Source: Nitrosopumilaceae archaeon (GTDB lineage: Archaea > Thermoproteota > Nitrososphaeria > Nitrososphaerales > Nitrosopumilaceae). Taken from it: a DNA stretch of 32,000 nucleotides. Shown here piece by piece: positions 1-20,653 of the stretch (position 1 is the first letter of the stretch; every line of letters begins with the position of its first letter). The notes below the pieces were generated by a model that had not been told where the DNA came from, made no database searches, and saw only the letters and a list, made by a program, of their open reading frames with translations. The stretch spans positions 428,060 to 460,059 of the forward strand of contig CBDBCR010000001.1 in the NCBI GenBank assembly GCA_965203465.1, written 5' to 3'. A program made the position numbers and the translations under genes.

Positions 1-1369
1 ATTCGACCGCGCTGACCGCCTCTTTCCCGGACACGTCTGCCCACGCGCCCGCCTCCGGATCCCACGCGACCGCGCCGGGCGGCATGGCCAGCTTTCCGAG
101 CGGGCCGGCGGTCCTGACGTCCCACTGGGCGCGCACCGGCATGACCAGGCCCGTGTACGGGTGCCGGAAGACCGAGGGATCCGAGACGGCCCCCCAGATC
201 TGCGTGCTGTACACGTCCGAGAGGCCCATGACGGGGTTCCACGCCCCCTGGTACACCTGCTTTACCCCGATGTCGAGCACGCCGTCGGGGGCGCGCGCGT
301 TTATCGGCGTGAAGCGCGTGGGCACGCCGGCGCCAAAGTCGTTGATTATCCCCGAGACCGATTCGTTTGCGACGTACTGGTCTATCTTGGCCGCCAGGAA
401 TATGCGGACGGCCTCGCGCGCGCCGGCGCCGGCCGCCTCGGACACCAGCGCGTCGCGCTCGCCGGCCGACGCAAAGTCGCCCGAGTATATCCTGCGCGTC
501 AGCTCGTCGATCTCCACGTTTTCGTAGTTCCAGTAGCCGGGGCTGTTGAAGCCGGGCATGTTGGAGAACCACGGCGCGTACATCTGGGCGAGGCCCGTCT
601 GGTCGTAGCGCACGAACGCCGAGCGGCCGCCCCACCCCTCGGTGTACGCGTGCCACCTGTGCTCGGCAGGATCCGAGCCGTACACGACCACGAACGCCTT
701 GTTGAGGTCGCCGAACTGGCGCTTTACCGCAAAGCCCGAGCCCTCCAGGGCCGAGGCCAGCGTCTCGCCTATCGACCTGCGCACCGGATCGTCGCTCCTT
801 ATGAACACCGAAAGCTCCACCGGCTCGCCGCCGTGGTGCCAGGCGCCCCCGGACATGACCGCGCCCATCCCTTCCATGTATTTCGATATTATTCCGCGCG
901 CCCGGCCCGGATCGTACGAGACGCCGAGCCCCTCTATTTCGGCCAGCACCGCAGGATAGTCGGGATCGAAGGGCCCGTAGTTAGACACCATGGGCACGCC
1001 GTAGCCGCCCATCAGCTCGTTGACTATCAGGTCGCGGTCGAGCATGTAGTTTACCGCGAACCGAACCTCCCTCGACGCGAACGGGTTGAGTTTTTCGGAT
1101 TCTGCGGGGTTTAGCAGTATGTCGTAAGAGCCGCCGGTCGATTCGTGCACCTGCAGGCCCTCGCGCGCGCCCGCCCCCTGCAGGCGGTCCGACGGCATCC
1201 TGTAGTAGTAGATGTCCAAGTTGCCGGAGCGCACCTCCTCTAGCGCGGTGCTCTCGTCTGCGTACTGCACGAACCGCACGCCGTCAGAATAGGCGCCCGA
1301 GCCGTGCGCCGCGCCGGCGGCCGACGCGGCGGCCAGTAGCGCGCACAGTTGCAGCGCGAGCCGTGCCAA
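1..1369 (-). CDS. ABC transporter extracellular solute-binding protein, family 5 (DppA/OppA-like); C-terminus runs off the window
   Basis: Not in ORF track because it is partial. Minus-strand translation from TTG (1369-1367) reads LARLALQLCALLAAASAAGAAHGSGAYSDGVRFVQYADESTALEEVRSGNLDIYYYRMP...NPFASREVRFAVNYMLDRDLIV. This is a signal peptide followed by a family-5 SBP-like block. The frame was spot-checked at several points and found open down to position 1. TATA-like box lies ~29 nt upstream. Confidence 0.75.
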   Translation of the reverse strand, partial: MARLALQLCALLAAASAAGAAHGSGAYSDGVRFVQYADESTALEEVRSGNLDIYYYRMPSDRLQGAGAREGLQVHESTGGSYDILLNPAESEKLNPFASREVRFAVNYMLDRDLIVNELMGGYGVPMVSNYGPFDPDYPAVLAEIEGLGVSYDPGRARGIISKYMEGMGAVMSGGAWHHGGEPVELSVFIRSDDPVRRSIGETLASALEGSGFAVKRQFGDLNKAFVVVYGSDPAEHRWHAYTEGWGGRSAFVRYDQTGLAQMYAPWFSNMPGFNSPGYWNYENVEIDELTRRIYSGDFASAGERDALVSEAAGAGAREAVRIFLAAKIDQYVANESVSGIINDFGAGVPTRFTPINARAPDGVLDIGVKQVYQGAWNPVMGLSDVYSTQIWGAVSDPSVFRHPYTGLVMPVRAQWDVRTAGPLGKLAMPPGAVAWDPEAGAWADVSGKEAVSAVE

Positions 1370-11293: not shown

Positions 11294-12661
11294 CTACCTC
11301 AGCGCCGCGTCCAGCTCGGGCTTGCCCACCATCTTCTTCTCCAGGACCAGGCTCCGCACGGTCTTGCCGGTGGCCAGGGATTCCTTGAACAGCTGGGCCG
11401 CCTTCTGGTACCCTATCAGGGGGGCAAGCAGGGTGACCGTGAGCGGGCTGCGCTCCACGCCTTCTGCCAGCTTTTTTCTGTCGGCGCCCAGCCCGTCTAT
11501 CAGGTTGGACGCAAAGACGGGCACGAAGTTGGAGAGCATATCCGTCGAGTCGAGCACGGCCCGCAGCATGCCGGGCAGCATCACGTTGAGCTCGAACTGC
11601 CCCGCCGCCGCGGCCTGCGCGGCGGCAGCGTCGTTGCCGGCGACGGCGAAGCAGACCATGTTCATCGATTCTGCGAGAGACGGGTTGACCTTGCCGGGCA
11701 TTATCGAAGAGCCCGCGTGCACCGCCGGTATCTGAAGCTCCGCCAGACCCTCGAGCGGGCCAGAGGCCATCAGGCGCACGTCGCTTGCTATCCTGCCTAT
11801 CTCGGAGGCCAGGCAGCGCAGGGCCGCCGAAGCCGAGGCCACCGCGAGCCTGCTCTGCAGCGCGTACTGCATGTCCGGCTCGGGGATCAGCGGCAGCTTT
11901 GAGATCCGGGCAAGCTCGGCCACGGCCCTCTTCCTGTAGCCTCGCGGCGCGTTGGCCCCGGTGCCGACCGCCGTGCCGCCCAGCGCGACGCGGCGCAGCT
12001 CCTTCCTTGACGCGTCGAGCGCCGACGAGGCCCTCGAGACGGCCGTCGCGTACGCGCCGAACTCGCCGCCGAGGCTGACGGGCAACGCGTCCATCAGGTG
12101 CGTGCGGCCCACCTTTCTGTGCCCGGCGAACCTGCGCGCCGCGCGCCGCAGCGACGAGCTCAGCTTTTCGGATGCCTCCAGCACCCGGCCTGCGCCGAAC
12201 AGCACCGAGACGTGCATGGCGGTCGGGAACGTGTCGTTGCTCGACTGCGACATGTTGACGTGGTCGTTTGGGTGGAGCTTTTCGTACTGGCCCTTCCTGC
12301 CGCCCATGTGCTCCAGGGCCGCGTTGGCCAGGACCTCGTTGACGTTCATGTTGACGGCCGTGCCGGCGCCGGAGTTTATCGCGTCTACGGCAAACTGCCC
12401 GTCCAGCCTGCCGGCAAGGGCGTCGTCGCACGCCTTTTTTATCGCGCGGCCCCTCTTGGCGTCCAGCGCGCCGACCGCCACGTTGGCGGAGGCAGCAGAG
12501 CGCTTTATCATGACGAAGGCCCTTACCAGGTCGGGGTGCGACGGCCTGCCCGAGGCGGTGTACTGGCCCAGGGCCCTCTGGGTGAACGGCCCCCAGTACG
12601 CGCCTGCCGGCACGCGCACCCTCCCCAGCGAGTCCTCGTCGATCCTGTACCCGCCGGCCAC
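11294..12661 (-). CDS. Class II fumarate hydratase / aspartate ammonia-lyase family enzyme
   Basis: C-terminal 455 aa of track ORF 11294..13153. The GSSIMPGKVNP lyase signature is present. Start was set to GTG 12661, with AATATATGT box ~26 nt upstream. Confidence 0.85.
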   Translation of the reverse strand: MAGGYRIDEDSLGRVRVPAGAYWGPFTQRALGQYTASGRPSHPDLVRAFVMIKRSAASANVAVGALDAKRGRAIKKACDDALAGRLDGQFAVDAINSGAGTAVNMNVNEVLANAALEHMGGRKGQYEKLHPNDHVNMSQSSNDTFPTAMHVSVLFGAGRVLEASEKLSSSLRRAARRFAGHRKVGRTHLMDALPVSLGGEFGAYATAVSRASSALDASRKELRRVALGGTAVGTGANAPRGYRKRAVAELARISKLPLIPEPDMQYALQSRLAVASASAALRCLASEIGRIASDVRLMASGPLEGLAELQIPAVHAGSSIMPGKVNPSLAESMNMVCFAVAGNDAAAAQAAAAGQFELNVMLPGMLRAVLDSTDMLSNFVPVFASNLIDGLGADRKKLAEGVERSPLTVTLLAPLIGYQKAAQLFKESLATGKTVRSLVLEKKMVGKPELDAALR

Positions 12662-12682
12662 GCGCCGGCCGGAGGGGGGCTT

Positions 12683-12691
12683 ACATATATT
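12683..12691 (-). promoter_or_regulatory. TATA-like box for the fumarase operon
   Basis: ACATATATT on the plus strand, centred ~26 nt from GTG 12661. Confidence 0.5.
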
Positions 12692-12722
12692 GCCAGCTCG
12701 GCGCCGGTTCCAAAATTGTATT

Positions 12723-12732
12723 CTATATATTA
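12723..12732 (+). promoter_or_regulatory. TATA-like box for the NirK-family gene
   Basis: CTATATATTA, centred ~27 nt upstream of ATG 12755. Confidence 0.5.
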
Positions 12733-12754
12733 CGCCGCCCGCCCGCGGCGGCCA

Positions 12755-14161
12755 ATGAATAGACGTACTAGCATGGTGTTCACCATCGCCGCGGTAGCGG
12801 CAATGGGAGCAACGCTGTTCGGAGGCACGTTCACTCAGTCCGCCGCGTCCGGCGCCGCCCTCGGCAAAGACACCGAGGCGGCCCACCAGATGGGCGGCCT
12901 CGAGCTCGTGATGCCGAGCGCGTTTGCCAGCACGCACTGTGAAAACGTAGACACGATGGGCCGCAACGTGGTAGAGGCAAATCTGGTCGGTGTCAGCGTC
13001 GAGCTGCCCATCATGGGAGGCAAGACGTACAGCGCGATGACCTTCAACGAGCAGGTCCCCGGACCTACCGTGAGGGCCACGCAGGGCGACGTCATAAAGA
13101 TGACGCTCACCGTACCCGAAGACGAGCTCACCGCGCACGGAAACGACATGCACGCCTCGCAGATAAGCGGCGCCAACTTCGGCGCCGTCCAGCCGGGCGA
13201 GTCAAAGACCTACTGCTTCATCGCGGAGGTCCCCGGCGTGTTCAAGTACCACTGCTCCGGCATAGACCTGGCCGCAATGGATCAGCACGTGTTCTCTGGC
13301 ATGTACGGCATAACCATAGTCGATCCGCTCGACGGCTACAAAAAGCTGATGACGGAAAAGACGATGGTGGAGAACGGGCGGATCAAGATAGATCGCCAGT
13401 TCGTAGAGCCCGACGCGCTAGAGTTCCAGCTCCAGTACAACGAACTGTACCTCAACGACGACGGCGGCTACGACATGAACAAGATGTTCGACCACGATCT
13501 GGCACAGACGGTGGTCAACGGCTTGGCGTTTTCGTACCTGCCCAACGAGATCCACAACACGCTGATCAACGGCGACCCGCGCAGGGACGTCACCATAGCG
13601 CAGGTGTGGAACTCTTCGGACCTCAACCAGTACCAGGCGCAGCTGCTCTTCGTTGAAGAGGATCAGCACGTCCGGTTCTTCGTGCAAAACCAGGGCCGCG
13701 AGTCCGTGTTTTGGCACATCGTCGGCGAGATCCTAGACAGGGTCACGCAGGGCAACAGGGTCCAGGCGCAGGGAACGGAGACGTGGCTGCTCGGCGGCTC
13801 GCAGAACATGATCGTTGATGTGGTATTCGACGAACCGGGCCACTACATAGCGGTCAACCACGACTATGCGGCCATATACCAGGGCGCCGCGACGGTCATC
13901 GTCGTAGGCGATCCGTTCGGCCTCAACCCGACACTGATGGATCTAGGCGTGATTGAATCTCCTGTACCTTCGTACGCGCACGTCATGGGCAACCCCACCG
14001 ACGCAATCCCGCCGATGGGCTCTCAGAGCGTAGCGCACCCCGCGCAGATACTCCACGGCCTGTACACCGACGATCGCGCAGCGCAGATACAGCAAGAGAC
14101 GGGCGCCCTTACGGGCAGCGCCGTCATGCAGATAGTCAACGACGCGCTGGCAGCTTCCTAG
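12755..14161 (+). CDS. nirK: Copper-containing nitrite reductase (NirK) family two-cupredoxin protein with signal peptide and extra C-terminal ~85 aa
   Basis: Internal ATG of track ORF 12098..14161. Motifs are HGNDMH (H-x2-D-x-H), YHC-x10-H-x4-M (YHCSGIDLAAMDQHVFSGMYG), WHIVGE and AVNHDYAAIYQGAATVIVV. N-terminus is MNRRTSMVFTIAAVAAMGATLF. Confidence 0.7.
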   Translation: MNRRTSMVFTIAAVAAMGATLFGGTFTQSAASGAALGKDTEAAHQMGGLELVMPSAFASTHCENVDTMGRNVVEANLVGVSVELPIMGGKTYSAMTFNEQVPGPTVRATQGDVIKMTLTVPEDELTAHGNDMHASQISGANFGAVQPGESKTYCFIAEVPGVFKYHCSGIDLAAMDQHVFSGMYGITIVDPLDGYKKLMTEKTMVENGRIKIDRQFVEPDALEFQLQYNELYLNDDGGYDMNKMFDHDLAQTVVNGLAFSYLPNEIHNTLINGDPRRDVTIAQVWNSSDLNQYQAQLLFVEEDQHVRFFVQNQGRESVFWHIVGEILDRVTQGNRVQAQGTETWLLGGSQNMIVDVVFDEPGHYIAVNHDYAAIYQGAATVIVVGDPFGLNPTLMDLGVIESPVPSYAHVMGNPTDAIPPMGSQSVAHPAQILHGLYTDDRAAQIQQETGALTGSAVMQIVNDALAAS

Positions 14162-14216: not shown

Positions 14217-14294
14217 TGGTGGGCCCGATGAGATTCGAACTCATGACCTTTCGATTATCAGTCGAACGCTCCAGCCAAGCTGAGCTACGAGCCC
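14217..14294 (-). tRNA. tRNA-Ile (anticodon GAT), CCA encoded
   Basis: Reverse complement reads GGGCTCGTAGCTCAGCTTGGCTGGAGCGTTCGACTGATAATCGAAAGGTCATGAGTTCGAATCTCATCGGGCCCACCA. It folds as a full cloverleaf with anticodon loop CTGATAA. TATA-like box lies ~29 nt upstream. Confidence 0.9.
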
Positions 14295-14326
14295 ACGGGG
14301 GCGGGCGGGGCCGGCCGGATTTAAGT

Positions 14327-14869
14327 CTAATTTGCCGGCTTCCACTTTATCGAGCAGCCGATCGAGGGATCAAAGTCCTTCTCTATGGGCCTGCCGGCAA
14401 GCAGGCTCTCTATGTTGGCCTCCATGGTCATTTCGGAGGCCTGCGCCTCGGGAGTCGCCGCGTCGTCTAGCCTGCCGTGGAAGACCAGCCTGCGGCCCGC
14501 GTCGAACAGGAACGGATCCGGCGTGCAGGTGGCCCCGTAGGCCCTGGCCGTCTCCTGCGTCTGGTCTGCCAGGTAGTCTATGCCGAGATCCATTTTTTTC
14601 ATGGCCTCGAAAGAGTCCTCCGGGTATGCCTGCGCGTCGTTGCTGTTTATCCCCACGATGTCTATTTTGCCGCCGAACTTTCCTGCCAGCCTGCGTATCT
14701 CGGGGATCTTTGCCTTTACGTAGGGGCAGTGGTTGCACATGAATATGACTAGCAGGCCGGCCTTGCCGTACTCGGAGAGCCTGTGGTCTTTTCCGTCGGT
14801 CCCGGGAAGCTCGAACGGGGGGGCCGCGTCGCCCGCCGACAGCTTTGTCTGGGATTCGAGAAGCACCAC
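14327..14869 (-). CDS. Thioredoxin-fold thiol-disulfide oxidoreductase (redoxin/AhpC-TSA-like, CNHC active site)
   Basis: Track ORF 14327..14908, FMCNHCPYV motif. Start was moved to GTG 14869 because TTTTTAT lies ~26 nt upstream of it and would overlap the track's TTG start. Confidence 0.75.
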   Translation of the reverse strand: MVLLESQTKLSAGDAAPPFELPGTDGKDHRLSEYGKAGLLVIFMCNHCPYVKAKIPEIRRLAGKFGGKIDIVGINSNDAQAYPEDSFEAMKKMDLGIDYLADQTQETARAYGATCTPDPFLFDAGRRLVFHGRLDDAATPEAQASEMTMEANIESLLAGRPIEKDFDPSIGCSIKWKPAN

Positions 14870-14891
14870 GGCGCCGCCCGGCGGCCTGCTA

Positions 14892-14898
14892 CATAAAA
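14892..14898 (-). promoter_or_regulatory. TATA-like box for the redoxin gene
   Basis: ATAAAAA on the plus strand, ~26 nt from GTG 14869. Confidence 0.45.
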
Positions 14899-14910
14899 AC
14901 CGTGACAAAG

Positions 14911-14918
14911 CAATAAAA
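14911..14918 (+). promoter_or_regulatory. TATA-like box for tRNA-Ala
   Basis: AATAAAAC, centred ~28 nt upstream of the tRNA 5' end at 14943. Confidence 0.5.
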
Positions 14919-14942
14919 CCGGCCAGCGCCGGGCGCCGCCGT

Positions 14943-15016
14943 GGGCTGGTAGTATAGCCTGGTAGTATACCCGCCTTGCACGCGGGGGGTCATGGGTTCG
15001 AATCCCGTCCAGTCCA
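14943..15016 (+). tRNA. tRNA-Ala (anticodon TGC)
   Basis: GGGCTGGTAGTATAGCCTGGTAGTATACCCGCCTTGCACGCGGGGGGTCATGGGTTCGAATCCCGTCCAGTCCA. It forms a cloverleaf with the G3:U70 Ala identity pair and anticodon loop CTTGCAC. No CCA is encoded. Confidence 0.9.
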
Positions 15017-15028
15017 TTTCCCTTGTCC

Positions 15029-15314: not shown

Positions 15315-15512
15315 ATGGAAGGGCGGCGGGCGGTCAGGTGTCCGGAGTGCGATTCGGCGGTGCTCAACACGCCGCGCATAGTCGTGCGCCGCACAAAGTC
15401 GACCCGGATAGGGCTGCCGCTCAAGGCGTGCCCCCGGTGCAGGATAATCGTGGCGGCCGGGGCCATGGACGGCTGGAGGATATGGACGCCCAACGGGCTG
15501 GCCGAGACGTGA
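15315..15512 (+). CDS. Small zinc-ribbon protein (CPEC...CPRC)
   Basis: Track ORF 15306..15512. ATG 15315 is preferred because TTTTTTACTA lies ~26 nt upstream. High GC3 and two CxxC pairs. Confidence 0.55.
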   Translation: MEGRRAVRCPECDSAVLNTPRIVVRRTKSTRIGLPLKACPRCRIIVAAGAMDGWRIWTPNGLAET

Positions 15513-15571
15513 GGGCCGCCCCGCTTGGCCGCGGCCGCATGGGTTATACGCGCCGGGCGCGCACGTAGTGC

Positions 15572-16441
15572 GTGGCGCGCGGGTACGCATCCGACGAGCT
15601 TGGCAGGCGCGTGGCCGACCTGCTCGGATCGAACCCGGGCCTGCCGGGCTCGGAAATTTCGCGCAGGCTGGGCGTGGGCAGGGCCACCATGGCAAAGTAC
15701 CTCTCGCTCTTCGAATCCGAGGGCCTTGTGCGCAAGAGCCTCGCCGGCGGCGTGGCCCTCTGGCACGCAGGAGACGCGGCCGAGCGGTTCTCGTTTCCCG
15801 AGGACTATTTCCGCGTGCAGAAAAAATACTCAAAGGCGCTCTCGTCGCTTTCCGTCTCCGAGGCGCGCTCGCTCGTCTCGGGGTGCGCGCACTCGGGCGC
15901 GTCGGTCTCGCGCATGGTGTCGGAGGTGTTTTTGCCGTCGGTGCTAGAGACGGGCGCGCTCTTCGACCAGGGCAGGATCGGGGCCGCCGAGGAGAGCATG
16001 ATGAGGACGATGGTCTCCGATTCCATACGGCAGCTCGACTTTCCGCCGCCGCCCGAGCCGGGCAAGACCGCGGTGCTCATGTCGGCAGACTCGGACAGGC
16101 TCATGCTCGACGCCGCGCGCGCCATGTACGGCGCCGAGCGCTGGCGCACCTGCTCTCTAGGAAACGTGGCCACCGCGGCCGACGTGATATTCGACCTGGA
16201 CCTGCAAAAGCTCGTCGCGCGCGTCTCGGGCGGGCGCGGCACCACGGTCGTGGCCGTCTTTTCCGGCTCGCCCGAGCCCATGGCGTTCTTTGCAGAGGCC
16301 GTAAAGTCGGTAAAGTCGCGCCACCGCGGCCGGCTCCTGTCGGTGCTGTGCGGCCCCGACTGCGGCGTGGAGGCGGACCTTGCCACCGACGACCTCTCGG
16401 CGGTGCTCCAGTGGTCCGAGACCGCCTGCGGGGCGGCCTAG
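15572..16441 (+). CDS. Winged-HTH transcriptional regulator fused to a B12-binding-like (cap helical bundle + Rossmann-like) module lacking the DxHxxG His
   Basis: ORF track 289 aa, GTG start, with GTTATACG ~26 nt upstream. N-terminus SEISRRLGVGRATMAKYLSLFESEGLV is a wHTH. The middle, VSEVFLPSVLETGALFDQGRIGAAEESMMRTMV, resembles B12-binding_2. GKTAVLMSADSDRLML then sits where the Dx-H-xxG loop is expected. Confidence 0.65.
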   Translation: MARGYASDELGRRVADLLGSNPGLPGSEISRRLGVGRATMAKYLSLFESEGLVRKSLAGGVALWHAGDAAERFSFPEDYFRVQKKYSKALSSLSVSEARSLVSGCAHSGASVSRMVSEVFLPSVLETGALFDQGRIGAAEESMMRTMVSDSIRQLDFPPPPEPGKTAVLMSADSDRLMLDAARAMYGAERWRTCSLGNVATAADVIFDLDLQKLVARVSGGRGTTVVAVFSGSPEPMAFFAEAVKSVKSRHRGRLLSVLCGPDCGVEADLATDDLSAVLQWSETACGAA

Positions 16442-17319
16442 CCGAGCGCGATCCCGGCCGCCGCCAAGGCGCCTGCGGCCCTCGAAGACCAGACCGTCCT
16501 CGACATGGCCTCGATGCAGTCGCCCGAGTGGCCGCGGCGCAGCGAGAGGCCGGCGCGCGCGGCCAGGGGCAGGGCCGCCAACGCCAGCAGCGCAGAGTGC
16601 GGAAGGGCCCCAGAAAGGGCCCCCGCGGCCACCGAGGCGTAGGCGGCCGCCGCAAAGACCCAAAAGAGCGGAGCGGCCCTCTCCCTGCCCAAGAGCGTCA
16701 CGAGCGTCCTGCGCCCGCCGGCCTTGTCGGCGTCGTGGTCCGGAAAGGATGTCACGAACAGGACCAGCGCCGAGAGGCACCCCGCCGCCGCGCCGGCAAA
16801 GGCCACCTCGGCCCCGAGCCCGCCGGACTGTATCAGGTATGTGCCGGCCACGATGGCCGCGCCCTTGGCGGCAACGAAGACCTCGGCCAGCCCCGTATCG
16901 ACGATGCGCCCCGAGTACATGTACACCGAGACGACGGCAAAGGCCAGCAGGGCCGCGACGGGCCACCCCTGCATGTACACAAAGTACGCGCCGGCCGCGG
17001 CCCCCGCGGCGAGCAGCGCGAGGCCGGCCCTGCGCACCTTCTCCGGCTCCAGCAGGCCCTCGGGCAGCACGCCGGTGCCGCCGCTCATGCCTGTCCTGCG
17101 CGTCCTAGAGTCGATGCCGCGCCTGTAGTCGTGGTAGTCGTTGAGCATGTCGACGCTCGCGTGGAGGGCCAGCACGCCCGCCATGGTCAGGGCCGCGTGG
17201 CCCGCGTCGAGCGTCCCCGACTGCCACCACTGCAGCGCGAGGCCCGAGCACACGGCTATGACAGAGGCCAGCATGAACTTGGGGCGCGCCAGGCGGGCCC
17301 ACGCGCGCAGCGCGCCCAA
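16438..17319 (-). CDS. UbiA-family aromatic prenyltransferase (MenA-like)
   Basis: ORF track 293 aa, TTG start 2 nt after the upstream stop. NDYHDYRRGID and DHDADKAGGRRTL Asp-rich motifs are present, and the protein is polytopic. Confidence 0.75.
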   Translation of the reverse strand: MGALRAWARLARPKFMLASVIAVCSGLALQWWQSGTLDAGHAALTMAGVLALHASVDMLNDYHDYRRGIDSRTRRTGMSGGTGVLPEGLLEPEKVRRAGLALLAAGAAAGAYFVYMQGWPVAALLAFAVVSVYMYSGRIVDTGLAEVFVAAKGAAIVAGTYLIQSGGLGAEVAFAGAAAGCLSALVLFVTSFPDHDADKAGGRRTLVTLLGRERAAPLFWVFAAAAYASVAAGALSGALPHSALLALAALPLAARAGLSLRRGHSGDCIEAMSRTVWSSRAAGALAAAGIALG

Positions 17320-19651: not shown

Positions 19652-20653
19652 GTGAAGGTCTCGGTGTACGCGCCAGACGCGCCAGAGCAGTCGGTGCGCA
19701 GGCTGCGCCGCATGCTGGAGCTGGAGGGCGTGCAGAGCAGGGCGGCCAAGCCGCGCTCAAAGCCCGCCGGCGAGGACTGCGTGCTGGTGCTCGGCGGGGA
19801 CAAGGGGGTGCGCGAGTACTTTCACAAGGCGCCCGACACGTCGGTGCCGGTGCTGGGCCTAGGCGAGGGCGAATCGGGCGGCATGCTGGCGCAGACCGAC
19901 ATACGGGATCTCGCCTCGGATCTGCCGCGCCTGCGGCGCGGGCGGTACTCGGTGCAGGAGGTGCCGCGCCTCGGCGTGGCAATAGACGGGGGCGAGGCGC
20001 GCCCGGCGCTAAACGACGCGGCGGTCTTTCCTTCGCGCAGCGCCATGCTCATGGAGCACACGCTGCGCGTCAACGGCCAGGACGTCTGGCACGACAGCGG
20101 CGACGGCGTGATCGTCTCCACGCCGATGGGCTCGTCGGCGTATTCCATGTCGGCCGGCGGGCCTATGATATTCCAGGAATCGCGCGTCTTTGGCGTGATC
20201 TCGGTCAACTCGCTGGACATCACGCGCCGGCCCTTGGTGGTCTCGGACGGCTCGGTCATAGAGATGGGCGACATTTCGTCCCAGCTGCACTGCGAGGCGG
20301 TCATCGACGGCATCGCGCGCCACCCGGTCAAAAAGTCGGTCTCTTGCTCGCTGATGCAGCCGCCGGCGCGCATCGTGCGGCTGCGCGACGACTCCGCTTC
20401 CATAACGGCGCTCGCGCGCAAGGTGGATCTTGCGGCCGAGCTGCTGCGCATGCCGCCAAGCTCCAAACTTCTGCTAAAGACGCTAGAGTACGAGGGGGCC
20501 CTCACCCAGCGCGACCTTGCCAGCCGCACGATGCTGCCGCCGCGCACCCTGAGGCTCTCGCTGCGCCACCTGCTCGACGGCGGGTACGTCAAGCGGCGCG
20601 TCTCGGCGCGCGACGGCAGGCAGAGGATCTACGAGATTGCCGGGCTCGAATAA
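19652..20653 (+). CDS. nadK: NAD kinase fused to a C-terminal winged-HTH domain
   Basis: ORF track 333 aa, GTG start, with TTATTTTACC ~27 nt upstream. LVLGGDKG and DGVIVSTPMGSSAYSMSAGGP are NADK motifs. The last ~70 aa, LLKTLEYEGALTQRDLASRTMLPPRTLRLSLRHLLDGGYVKRR, are MarR/ArsR-like. Confidence 0.8.
   Translation: MKVSVYAPDAPEQSVRRLRRMLELEGVQSRAAKPRSKPAGEDCVLVLGGDKGVREYFHKAPDTSVPVLGLGEGESGGMLAQTDIRDLASDLPRLRRGRYSVQEVPRLGVAIDGGEARPALNDAAVFPSRSAMLMEHTLRVNGQDVWHDSGDGVIVSTPMGSSAYSMSAGGPMIFQESRVFGVISVNSLDITRRPLVVSDGSVIEMGDISSQLHCEAVIDGIARHPVKKSVSCSLMQPPARIVRLRDDSASITALARKVDLAAELLRMPPSSKLLLKTLEYEGALTQRDLASRTMLPPRTLRLSLRHLLDGGYVKRRVSARDGRQRIYEIAGLE

Follow-up and report, generated by a model that had tools for sequence, protein, structure and literature searches.

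The question raised by this locus is what a transcription factor is for when it carries the fold of a vitamin B12 sensor and lacks the histidine that would hold the vitamin. The window analysed here, a stretch of 32,000 nucleotides from a Nitrosopumilaceae archaeon, contains an open reading frame (ORF) at positions 15572-16441 of the plus strand, with a GTG start and 289 codons for amino acids, in a locus of about 68% GC. Its product (hereafter, the regulator) was described in an earlier note as a winged helix-turn-helix (wHTH) protein fused to a cobalamin-binding-like module, and both peptides quoted there, from the cap and from the loop, are present in the ORF. On indirect evidence, our analysis makes the regulator the leading candidate for the control of the ammonia monooxygenase (amo) genes in ammonia-oxidizing archaea (AOA), while its putative link to a conserved site upstream of amoC, the amo box, stands at about even chances.

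That the regulator has a cobalamin-binding fold is virtually certain. Its AlphaFold model (pLDDT 85, pTM 0.73) consists of the wHTH, then a four-helix cap and then a five-stranded Rossmann domain, and the top ranks of a Foldseek search with this model are occupied by CtMerR, CarH, photocobilins, LitR and AerR (best CtMerR 8jbt, E 6.6e-9; CarH 5c8f was also matched). A wide structural search found photocobilin 8j2w best (Z 19.7, rmsd 2.0, 193 residues aligned), with further matches to AppA SCHIC 4heh (Z 16.1), MtmC (16.1), MetH 1bmt (14.9) and CarH (14.4). Since structural searches rank cobalamin-binding modules first, the possibility that the C-terminal half belongs to an unrelated fold, on which the earlier note was prepared to give up its proposal, does not hold, and the proposed order of wHTH, B12-binding_2-like cap and Rossmann-like domain is upheld by the ORF, the model and both searches. 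The sequence-only signal is weak in the window copy (Pfam B12-binding_2, E 0.058; CarH, E 0.046). B12-binding_2 was matched in 22/25 orthologues at E values up to 0.5, the best being 5e-7, and in the Nitrosomirales orthologue L033 both PF02607 and PF02310 are above the cut-offs, under both of which the window copy falls; the fold match together with the L033 Pfam matches places the family in the cobalamin-binding domain superfamily. The DNA-binding domain matches HTH_IclR (above cut-off), HTH_24 and MarR_2 in Pfam and no MerR family, which, together with the structural matches, agrees with the earlier description of a CarH-like layout with a non-MerR HTH. NCBIfam matches to MntR, ArsR and Csa3 were set aside as HTH-only and far under cut-off, and so was a receiver-domain reading: the loop after strand 1 is acidic, but strand 3 lacks the terminal Asp. 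A 267-amino-acid protein with a similar HTH and a V4R-like domain was seen at L038 and L050 (G441, G379; some Nitrososphaeraceae), and its family is a possible source of the regulator's DNA-binding domain.

B12 or light sensing by the window copy is unlikely, because the lower His, the Wx9EH motif and an open nucleotide pocket are missing. The motifs that define CarH are, for the cap, Wx9EH and, for the Rossmann domain, D/ExHx2G/P...SxT/V...GG (PMC9304148), GxxW and EH in the cap being also given by PMC11796333. In the regulator, Trp and His of Wx9EH are replaced (F131, S142), the pocket Ser is Phe230 and the first Gly of GG is Cys260, while His177 of CarH aligns to Leu177 or Arg176 depending on the placement of a one-residue gap, neither being His. 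The lower axial His is thus indeed missing, as had been noticed earlier, whereas the B12-, corrinoid- or light-responsiveness proposed along with it is unsupported for the window copy at all these positions; His-on binding of B12 by this copy is improbable. Over 106 AOA sequences, position 131 is Tyr or Phe in 103 and Trp in none, His142 occurs in none, and the lower His is found in three of nine Nitrosomirales (L033, L040, L053) and in 0/97 others, some of which have a non-conserved His a few positions off the site. At the position of the pocket Ser, 49/53 Nitrosopumilaceae have Phe and 21/33 Nitrososphaeraceae have Tyr or Phe; Cys takes the place of the first Gly of GG in 47/53 Nitrosopumilaceae.

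The His-bearing trio keeps Glu, His, Gly, Ser and GG. Its member L033 scores 33.7 with PF02310 (cut-off 32.1), and the L033 structure model matches CtMerR at E 2e-12. In a tree of the sensor module (rough bootstrap, midpoint root) the trio makes up a short-branched group with support 96/87, and AOA and bacterial sequences are split with full support. Considering that His, Ser and GG persist in three of nine Nitrosomirales orthologues, the ancestor of the family probably bound B12, and we infer that this binding was His-on and without the light motif, and that His has disappeared about three times. Only for this ancestor and for the three orthologues is binding of B12 plausible, and of the public labels on orthologues, 'B12-binding domain-containing protein' and 'transcriptional regulator', the former is probably wrong for most family members. 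The loss of the lower His did not result from loss of the vitamin, because production and use of B12 continue in the source genome, as judged from its cbiD gene and its three canonical B12-binding domains.

The regulator is a core gene of AOA, present in all four AOA families and not found in the non-AOA relatives searched. A profile built from 25 orthologues detected it, nearly always as a single copy, in 172/180 genomes of Nitrosopumilaceae, 9/9 of Nitrosocaldaceae, 39/39 of Nitrososphaeraceae and 4/4 of Nitrosomirales; amoA was found in 174/180, 9/9, 37/39 and 4/4, respectively. The phylogenetic distribution of the fusion, which the earlier note had suggested to examine, therefore matches the range of amoA by family. 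In 68 other genomes of the class amoA was absent and the regulator profile gave four weak matches (E 5e-7 or worse), of which the one inspected is an HTH only. Among 1.8 billion cluster representatives, the assignable strong full-length matches are AOA proteins, and the nearest non-AOA two-domain sequences are bacterial XRE-HTH + B12 proteins (E ~1e-9). A DNA-pattern search of genomes returned one locus only, Atlas leads were all under 0.9, and a literature search found no study of the family.

Over the same 106 orthologues the recognition helix (R37-x-T39-x-x-K42-Y43-L44) and the wing residues G59 and W64 are conserved at 97-100%, and the AOA-specific insert F207-D208-x-D210, which bacterial homologues lack, at 87-99%. 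A homodimer was predicted with a score of 0.81 against 0.00 for the best control (contacts agreeing by at least 73% between runs, pLDDT at least 85), the score mark being attained in 20 of 30 cases by solved pairs and in 1 of 23 by single chains. In the predicted interface, residues 137-146 of the cap pack symmetrically against residues 193-218 of the partner's Rossmann domain, insert included. The score may stem from likeness to solved CarH dimers and shows likeness only.

The informative neighbour of the regulator is the amo cluster. The usual order in Nitrosopumilaceae is amoB, amoC, amoX, amoA, DNA methyltransferase, tRNA-Thr, a divergent RHH-like gene, regulator, tRNA-Ile, ahpC and tRNA-Ala, with 1.8-4.2 kb between regulator and amoA in 10/11 loci (1.8 kb in an 80%-identical relative); the distance is 6 kb in Nitrosocaldus, and amoC lies 12-24 kb from the regulator in two Nitrosomirales. 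The neighbours pointed out earlier, a small zinc-ribbon ORF and a convergent MenA-like gene, do exist but are not informative, as neither is conserved beside orthologues: a search of 30 orthologous loci and of five genomes did not turn up the zinc ribbon, and menA was not beside the regulator in 30 other loci, its adjacency being limited to the closest relatives. A functional tie to either was rejected on this ground.

Upstream alignments of the amoB-amoC region revealed the amo box, a 22-bp element of two 9-bp half-sites TG(A/T)T(A/T)A(A/T)CA with a 13-bp repeat, often in longer runs. Its distance from the amoC start is 170-188 bp in loci of all four families, 11 from Nitrosopumilaceae, 9 from Nitrosomirales, 5 from Nitrosocaldaceae and 16 from Nitrososphaeraceae (L089-L108, L176-L191, L192-L220), the matrix having been trained on the Nitrosopumilaceae and Nitrosomirales sets and the Nitrososphaeraceae loci picked by pattern. 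The fixed distance from the box to amoC and the varying distance to amoB suggest amoC as the main target. In an independent test on 121 Nitrososphaeraceae genomes the exact pattern gave 42 matches versus 2 for the reversed control, and of the 25 genomes that had a match, 18 have it in front of amoC or amoB. With one mismatch, the box was detected in 195/232 AOA versus 14/68 non-AOA genomes, the latter being less complete and kin being non-independent. In the source genome the amoB-amoC site (G000:C1:405799-405820, outside the window) ranks first with 15.7 bits versus 10.5 for the next, the matrix having been built without it; a second matrix match (window 258-279) was dismissed, being inside an ORF and near background. 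The amo box is real whichever protein binds it. Lineage-specific candidate motifs near amo promoters, which like the amo box are conserved candidate cis-elements, were described by Bartossek et al. (2012; PMC3379541), who found none for amoC and named no regulator; the amoB motifs given there may overlap part of the box. Our literature search found no later report of the amo box and no paper naming a regulator of AOA amo genes.

A regulator gene that carries an operator usually regulates itself. The amo box abuts the own TATA of the regulator gene in Nitrosomirales L033, L051 and L053 and in Nitrosocaldaceae L049 (one genus), scoring 18.6, 14.2, 9.5 and 10.1 bits, respectively, with a matrix trained on Nitrosopumilaceae only; 111 control promoters have a maximum of 8.4 and a 95th percentile of -11.2. 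In the deep-branching genomes G431, G559 and G502 a genome-wide search that allows no more than one mismatch gives few matches, and the regulator-promoter site is one of them. Three lines point, indirectly, to the amoC/amoB promoter region as the putative target of the regulator. The best reading of the sequence data is, in our opinion, a B12-independent dimer binding the amo box, which as a whole falls slightly short of an even chance; that the amo box is the regulator's target at all appears about equally probable and improbable.

Several points weigh against this reading. The range shared with amoA is not specific, because the AOA root saw the gain of 289 families (PMC7554672). Synteny alone is weak evidence, because unrelated genes share the same conserved order near amo; moreover, a rearrangement in the source genome has left amoA 24 kb off, beyond the window, and in Nitrososphaeraceae the regulator-amo linkage is lost. 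No amo box was found at the regulator promoter in the window, in Nitrosopumilaceae or in Nitrososphaeraceae. The own-promoter positives are related lineages, 3/8 Nitrosomirales regulator promoters score under the control 95th percentile, the right half of the own-promoter box overlaps the transcription factor B recognition element (BRE), and a box at this promoter equally fits co-regulation by another factor. The amo boxes of Nitrosocaldaceae (Nitrosocaldus) are weaker, 5-11 bits.

If the regulator does bind the amo box, the following scheme can be proposed. An AOA-wide transcription factor would occupy the box in front of amoC and, where amoB is divergent from amoC, also in front of amoB. Most lineages would have lost the lower His and filled the tail pocket, retaining the module, in the manner of CarA, as a scaffold for a head-to-tail dimer, and the cofactor-free dimer would read the two half-sites with its wHTH domains. 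Acting 5' of the TATA boxes, it would probably activate amoC and amoB (we infer the direction of control), while in deep lineages the dimer would, originally, repress the regulator gene itself, whose promoter has the box overlapping the BRE. The weakest step is the present-day input signal, probably protein level or a partner and not B12 or light; we know of no antirepressor for the regulator. Only tentatively, as something possible and not yet probable, do we suggest that the family is an amo regulator that arose at the AOA root as a B12 sensor tying amoC/amoB to cobalamin status, whose motif was kept in some Nitrosomirales and lost several times elsewhere, and which is made only via a programmed frameshift in one soil genus.

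The FRAMESHIFTED lineage, genus g141 of the Nitrososphaeraceae, has the regulator gene split in 28/28 genomes with a match; this tally includes genome G603, which was left out of the 27 loci analysed further (L036, L109-L111, L113-L135). All 27 have exactly ten A at the same place, other orthologues having in-frame runs of 2-9 A. A -1 shift at the A10 run brings the conserved wing sequence back into frame; without the shift, the reading frame ends after another 4-23 codons, and the C-terminal piece has an annotation of its own, in a cluster of 372 proteins. The ratio of nonsynonymous to synonymous substitution rates (dN/dS) is 0.077 before the shift and 0.073 after it (dS ~0.9). Since both halves are under purifying selection, the full-length protein is probably made, and the A10 site looks like a candidate for programmed slippage or ribosomal frameshifting. 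Archaeal recoding cases are very few, with one -1 frameshift reported as of PMC8211752, and the g141 site would extend them. The amo box is intact in this genus.

Alternatively, the protein could be a B12-independent core regulator of AOA with other targets, another factor reading the amo box and the regulator gene being at most a member of the regulon. We consider this unlikely on balance. It would account for the absence of the box from the regulator promoter of the two largest families and for the perfect amo box of genus g141 next to a frameshifted regulator gene, and there are further conserved regulators near amo, namely an AsnC-family gene (Table S15, PMC10030591) and the divergent RHH-like gene. 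However, the RHH-like gene has a different motif of its own and homologues outside AOA, the selection on both g141 gene halves argues for a full-length product, and the regulator promoter is among the few best box sites in three deep-branching genomes.

The remaining alternatives concern the ligand. His-free binding of a corrinoid, be it base-on cobalamin, cobinamide or an intermediate of the biosynthesis, by which the protein would report B12 or cobalt status, takes up the proposal of the earlier note; it is compatible with any target but improbable: the intact fold, the cobalamin genes of the source genome, the gain of B12 synthesis at the AOA root (PMC7554672) and the passing of PF02310 by L033 speak for it, yet outside Nitrosomirales the loop and the pocket are free to vary, the families have no conserved residue in common that could replace the axial ligand, and no cobalamin biosynthesis genes were recognised among the identified conserved neighbours, some of which are unnamed. 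The same fold could hold heme or another redox group, as in AppA SCHIC, which is close in structure (Z 16.1) and a precedent of cofactor switch; SCHIC, however, retains a His as heme ligand (PMC9144470), whereas the regulator has none. Sensing of oxygen, nitric oxide or peroxide by Cys105 and Cys260, conserved in 44/53 and 47/53 Nitrosopumilaceae, where an AhpC-type gene is a neighbour, meets the objection that the other three families lack Cys at both positions, and redox sensing of either kind seems to us highly improbable. As to an adenosylcobalamin photoreceptor of the CarH/LitR kind, which the fold and the predicted dimer bring to mind, it is hardly credible with Trp131 and His142 in 0/106 AOA sequences, His177 in three only and an HTH that is not of the MerR type.

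The features of the locus are collected in the table. The TATA-like element lies 23 bases 5' of the regulator start, and orthologues have the same element at about equal spacing.

Table. Features of the regulator locus (positions in the window).
Feature	Positions	Strand	Basis
Regulator gene, wHTH + degenerate cobalamin-binding fold, AOA core gene	15572..16441	+	ORF, profile search, structure model
TATA-like TTATAC, regulator's own promoter, probably leaderless, without amo box	15544..15549	+	sequence
Winged HTH, residues 6-66 (model: about 7-66)	15587..15769	+	Pfam, AlphaFold model
Four-helix cap, B12-binding_2-like, residues 79-154 in model; Wx9EH reads F131-x9-E141-S142	15806..16033	+	model, alignment
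Rossmann domain of cobalamin-binding fold, five strands, residues 165-288 in model	16064..16435	+	model, structural search
Loop at expected ExHxxG, residues 172-180; no His, no Gly	16085..16111	+	alignment
AOA-specific insert, ~10 residues, F207-D208-x-D210; in predicted dimer interface	16181..16213	+	alignment, model
Phe230 replacing pocket Ser of SxT/V motif	16259..16261	+	alignment
Cys260 replacing first Gly of GG motif	16349..16351	+	alignment
Small zinc-ribbon ORF, probably unrelated	15306/15315..15512	+	ORF, Pfam; not beside orthologues
MenA/UbiA prenyltransferase, convergent	16438..17319	-	adjacent only in closest relatives
tRNA-Ile, AhpC/thioredoxin-family gene, tRNA-Ala block; here on regulator's 5' side	14217..15017		usual regulator flank in most Nitrosopumilaceae

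Several other observations were made in the course of this analysis. The RHH-like protein, 127 amino acids with a C-terminal Cys/His cluster, is encoded divergently from the regulator in Nitrosopumilaceae and Nitrosomirus (L089:7638-8021, minus strand; G000:C1:420598-420975). Its promoter has GTAC-N6-GTAC just past the TATA box, a motif that also follows TATA-like boxes at several further sites of the source genome; lying between the regulator and its divergent neighbour, it was not taken as the regulator's operator, because it travels with the RHH-like gene. Beside tRNA-Ile and ahpC the window encodes a multicopper protein (12098-14161, plus strand), which we take to resemble AOA NirK, and at 19652-20653 (plus strand) an NAD-kinase-like protein with a C-terminal MarR-type HTH, the Pfam matches coming from an equal-length gene at the same place in L251. 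In Nitrosopumilaceae (L089-L108) a short CGATC element recurs on the 5' side of the BRE at amoA, amoB and amoX, and it may be one of the motifs of PMC3379541. In the Nitrosomirales locus L185 (G561:C32:2255-2791) there is a divergent amoC-like sequence (35% identity, one internal stop) with amo-box-like sites nearby, and the Nitrosopumilaceae-type amoC-amoB pair at L218 (G612:C104), in a Nitrososphaeraceae assembly, is probably binning contamination.

AOA carry much of global nitrification, and a named candidate protein together with a 22-bp site conserved in four families opens the control of archaeal amo genes to direct testing. The regulator family is, besides, a natural series from an intact B12 motif to an empty fold, and may serve as a model for a cofactor sensor turning cofactor-independent.

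By their defining motifs, the regulator is outside CarH, CarA and SCHIC. With CarH/LitR (Thermus thermophilus 5c8d; CtMerR 8jbs) it shares the succession of an N-terminal DNA-binding domain, four-helix cap and Rossmann domain, the predicted symmetric cap-to-Rossmann dimer and a proposed tandem-repeat operator; it differs in having an ArsR/IclR-like wHTH instead of MerR, a filled tail pocket, the insert of about 10 residues and the 13-bp repeat, and in lacking Wx9EH and the lower His. The closest non-AOA combination of HTH and module is that of the bacterial XRE-HTH + B12 proteins (P0134, P0145, P0147, P0149; HHalign probability 97.8%), which, in contrast to the regulator, have an HTH_3 domain, intact Wx9EH and D/ExH and no insert. 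AppA SCHIC and AerR/PpaA (PMC9144470; 4heh, 7te2) likewise put this module to use in gene regulation, with a cofactor site that has changed, but they keep the loop His after the first strand, absent from the regulator, and do not themselves carry a DNA-binding domain. CarA of Myxococcus xanthus (PMC9304148) has kept the B12 fold and works without B12 as a stable dimer, and the regulator may do likewise; however, in CarA the B12-binding motif and the EH pair are retained, Trp being lost, and the HTH is of the MerR type, whereas the regulator has lost both motifs. By analogy, the regulator may work like CarA without being a member of the CarA family.
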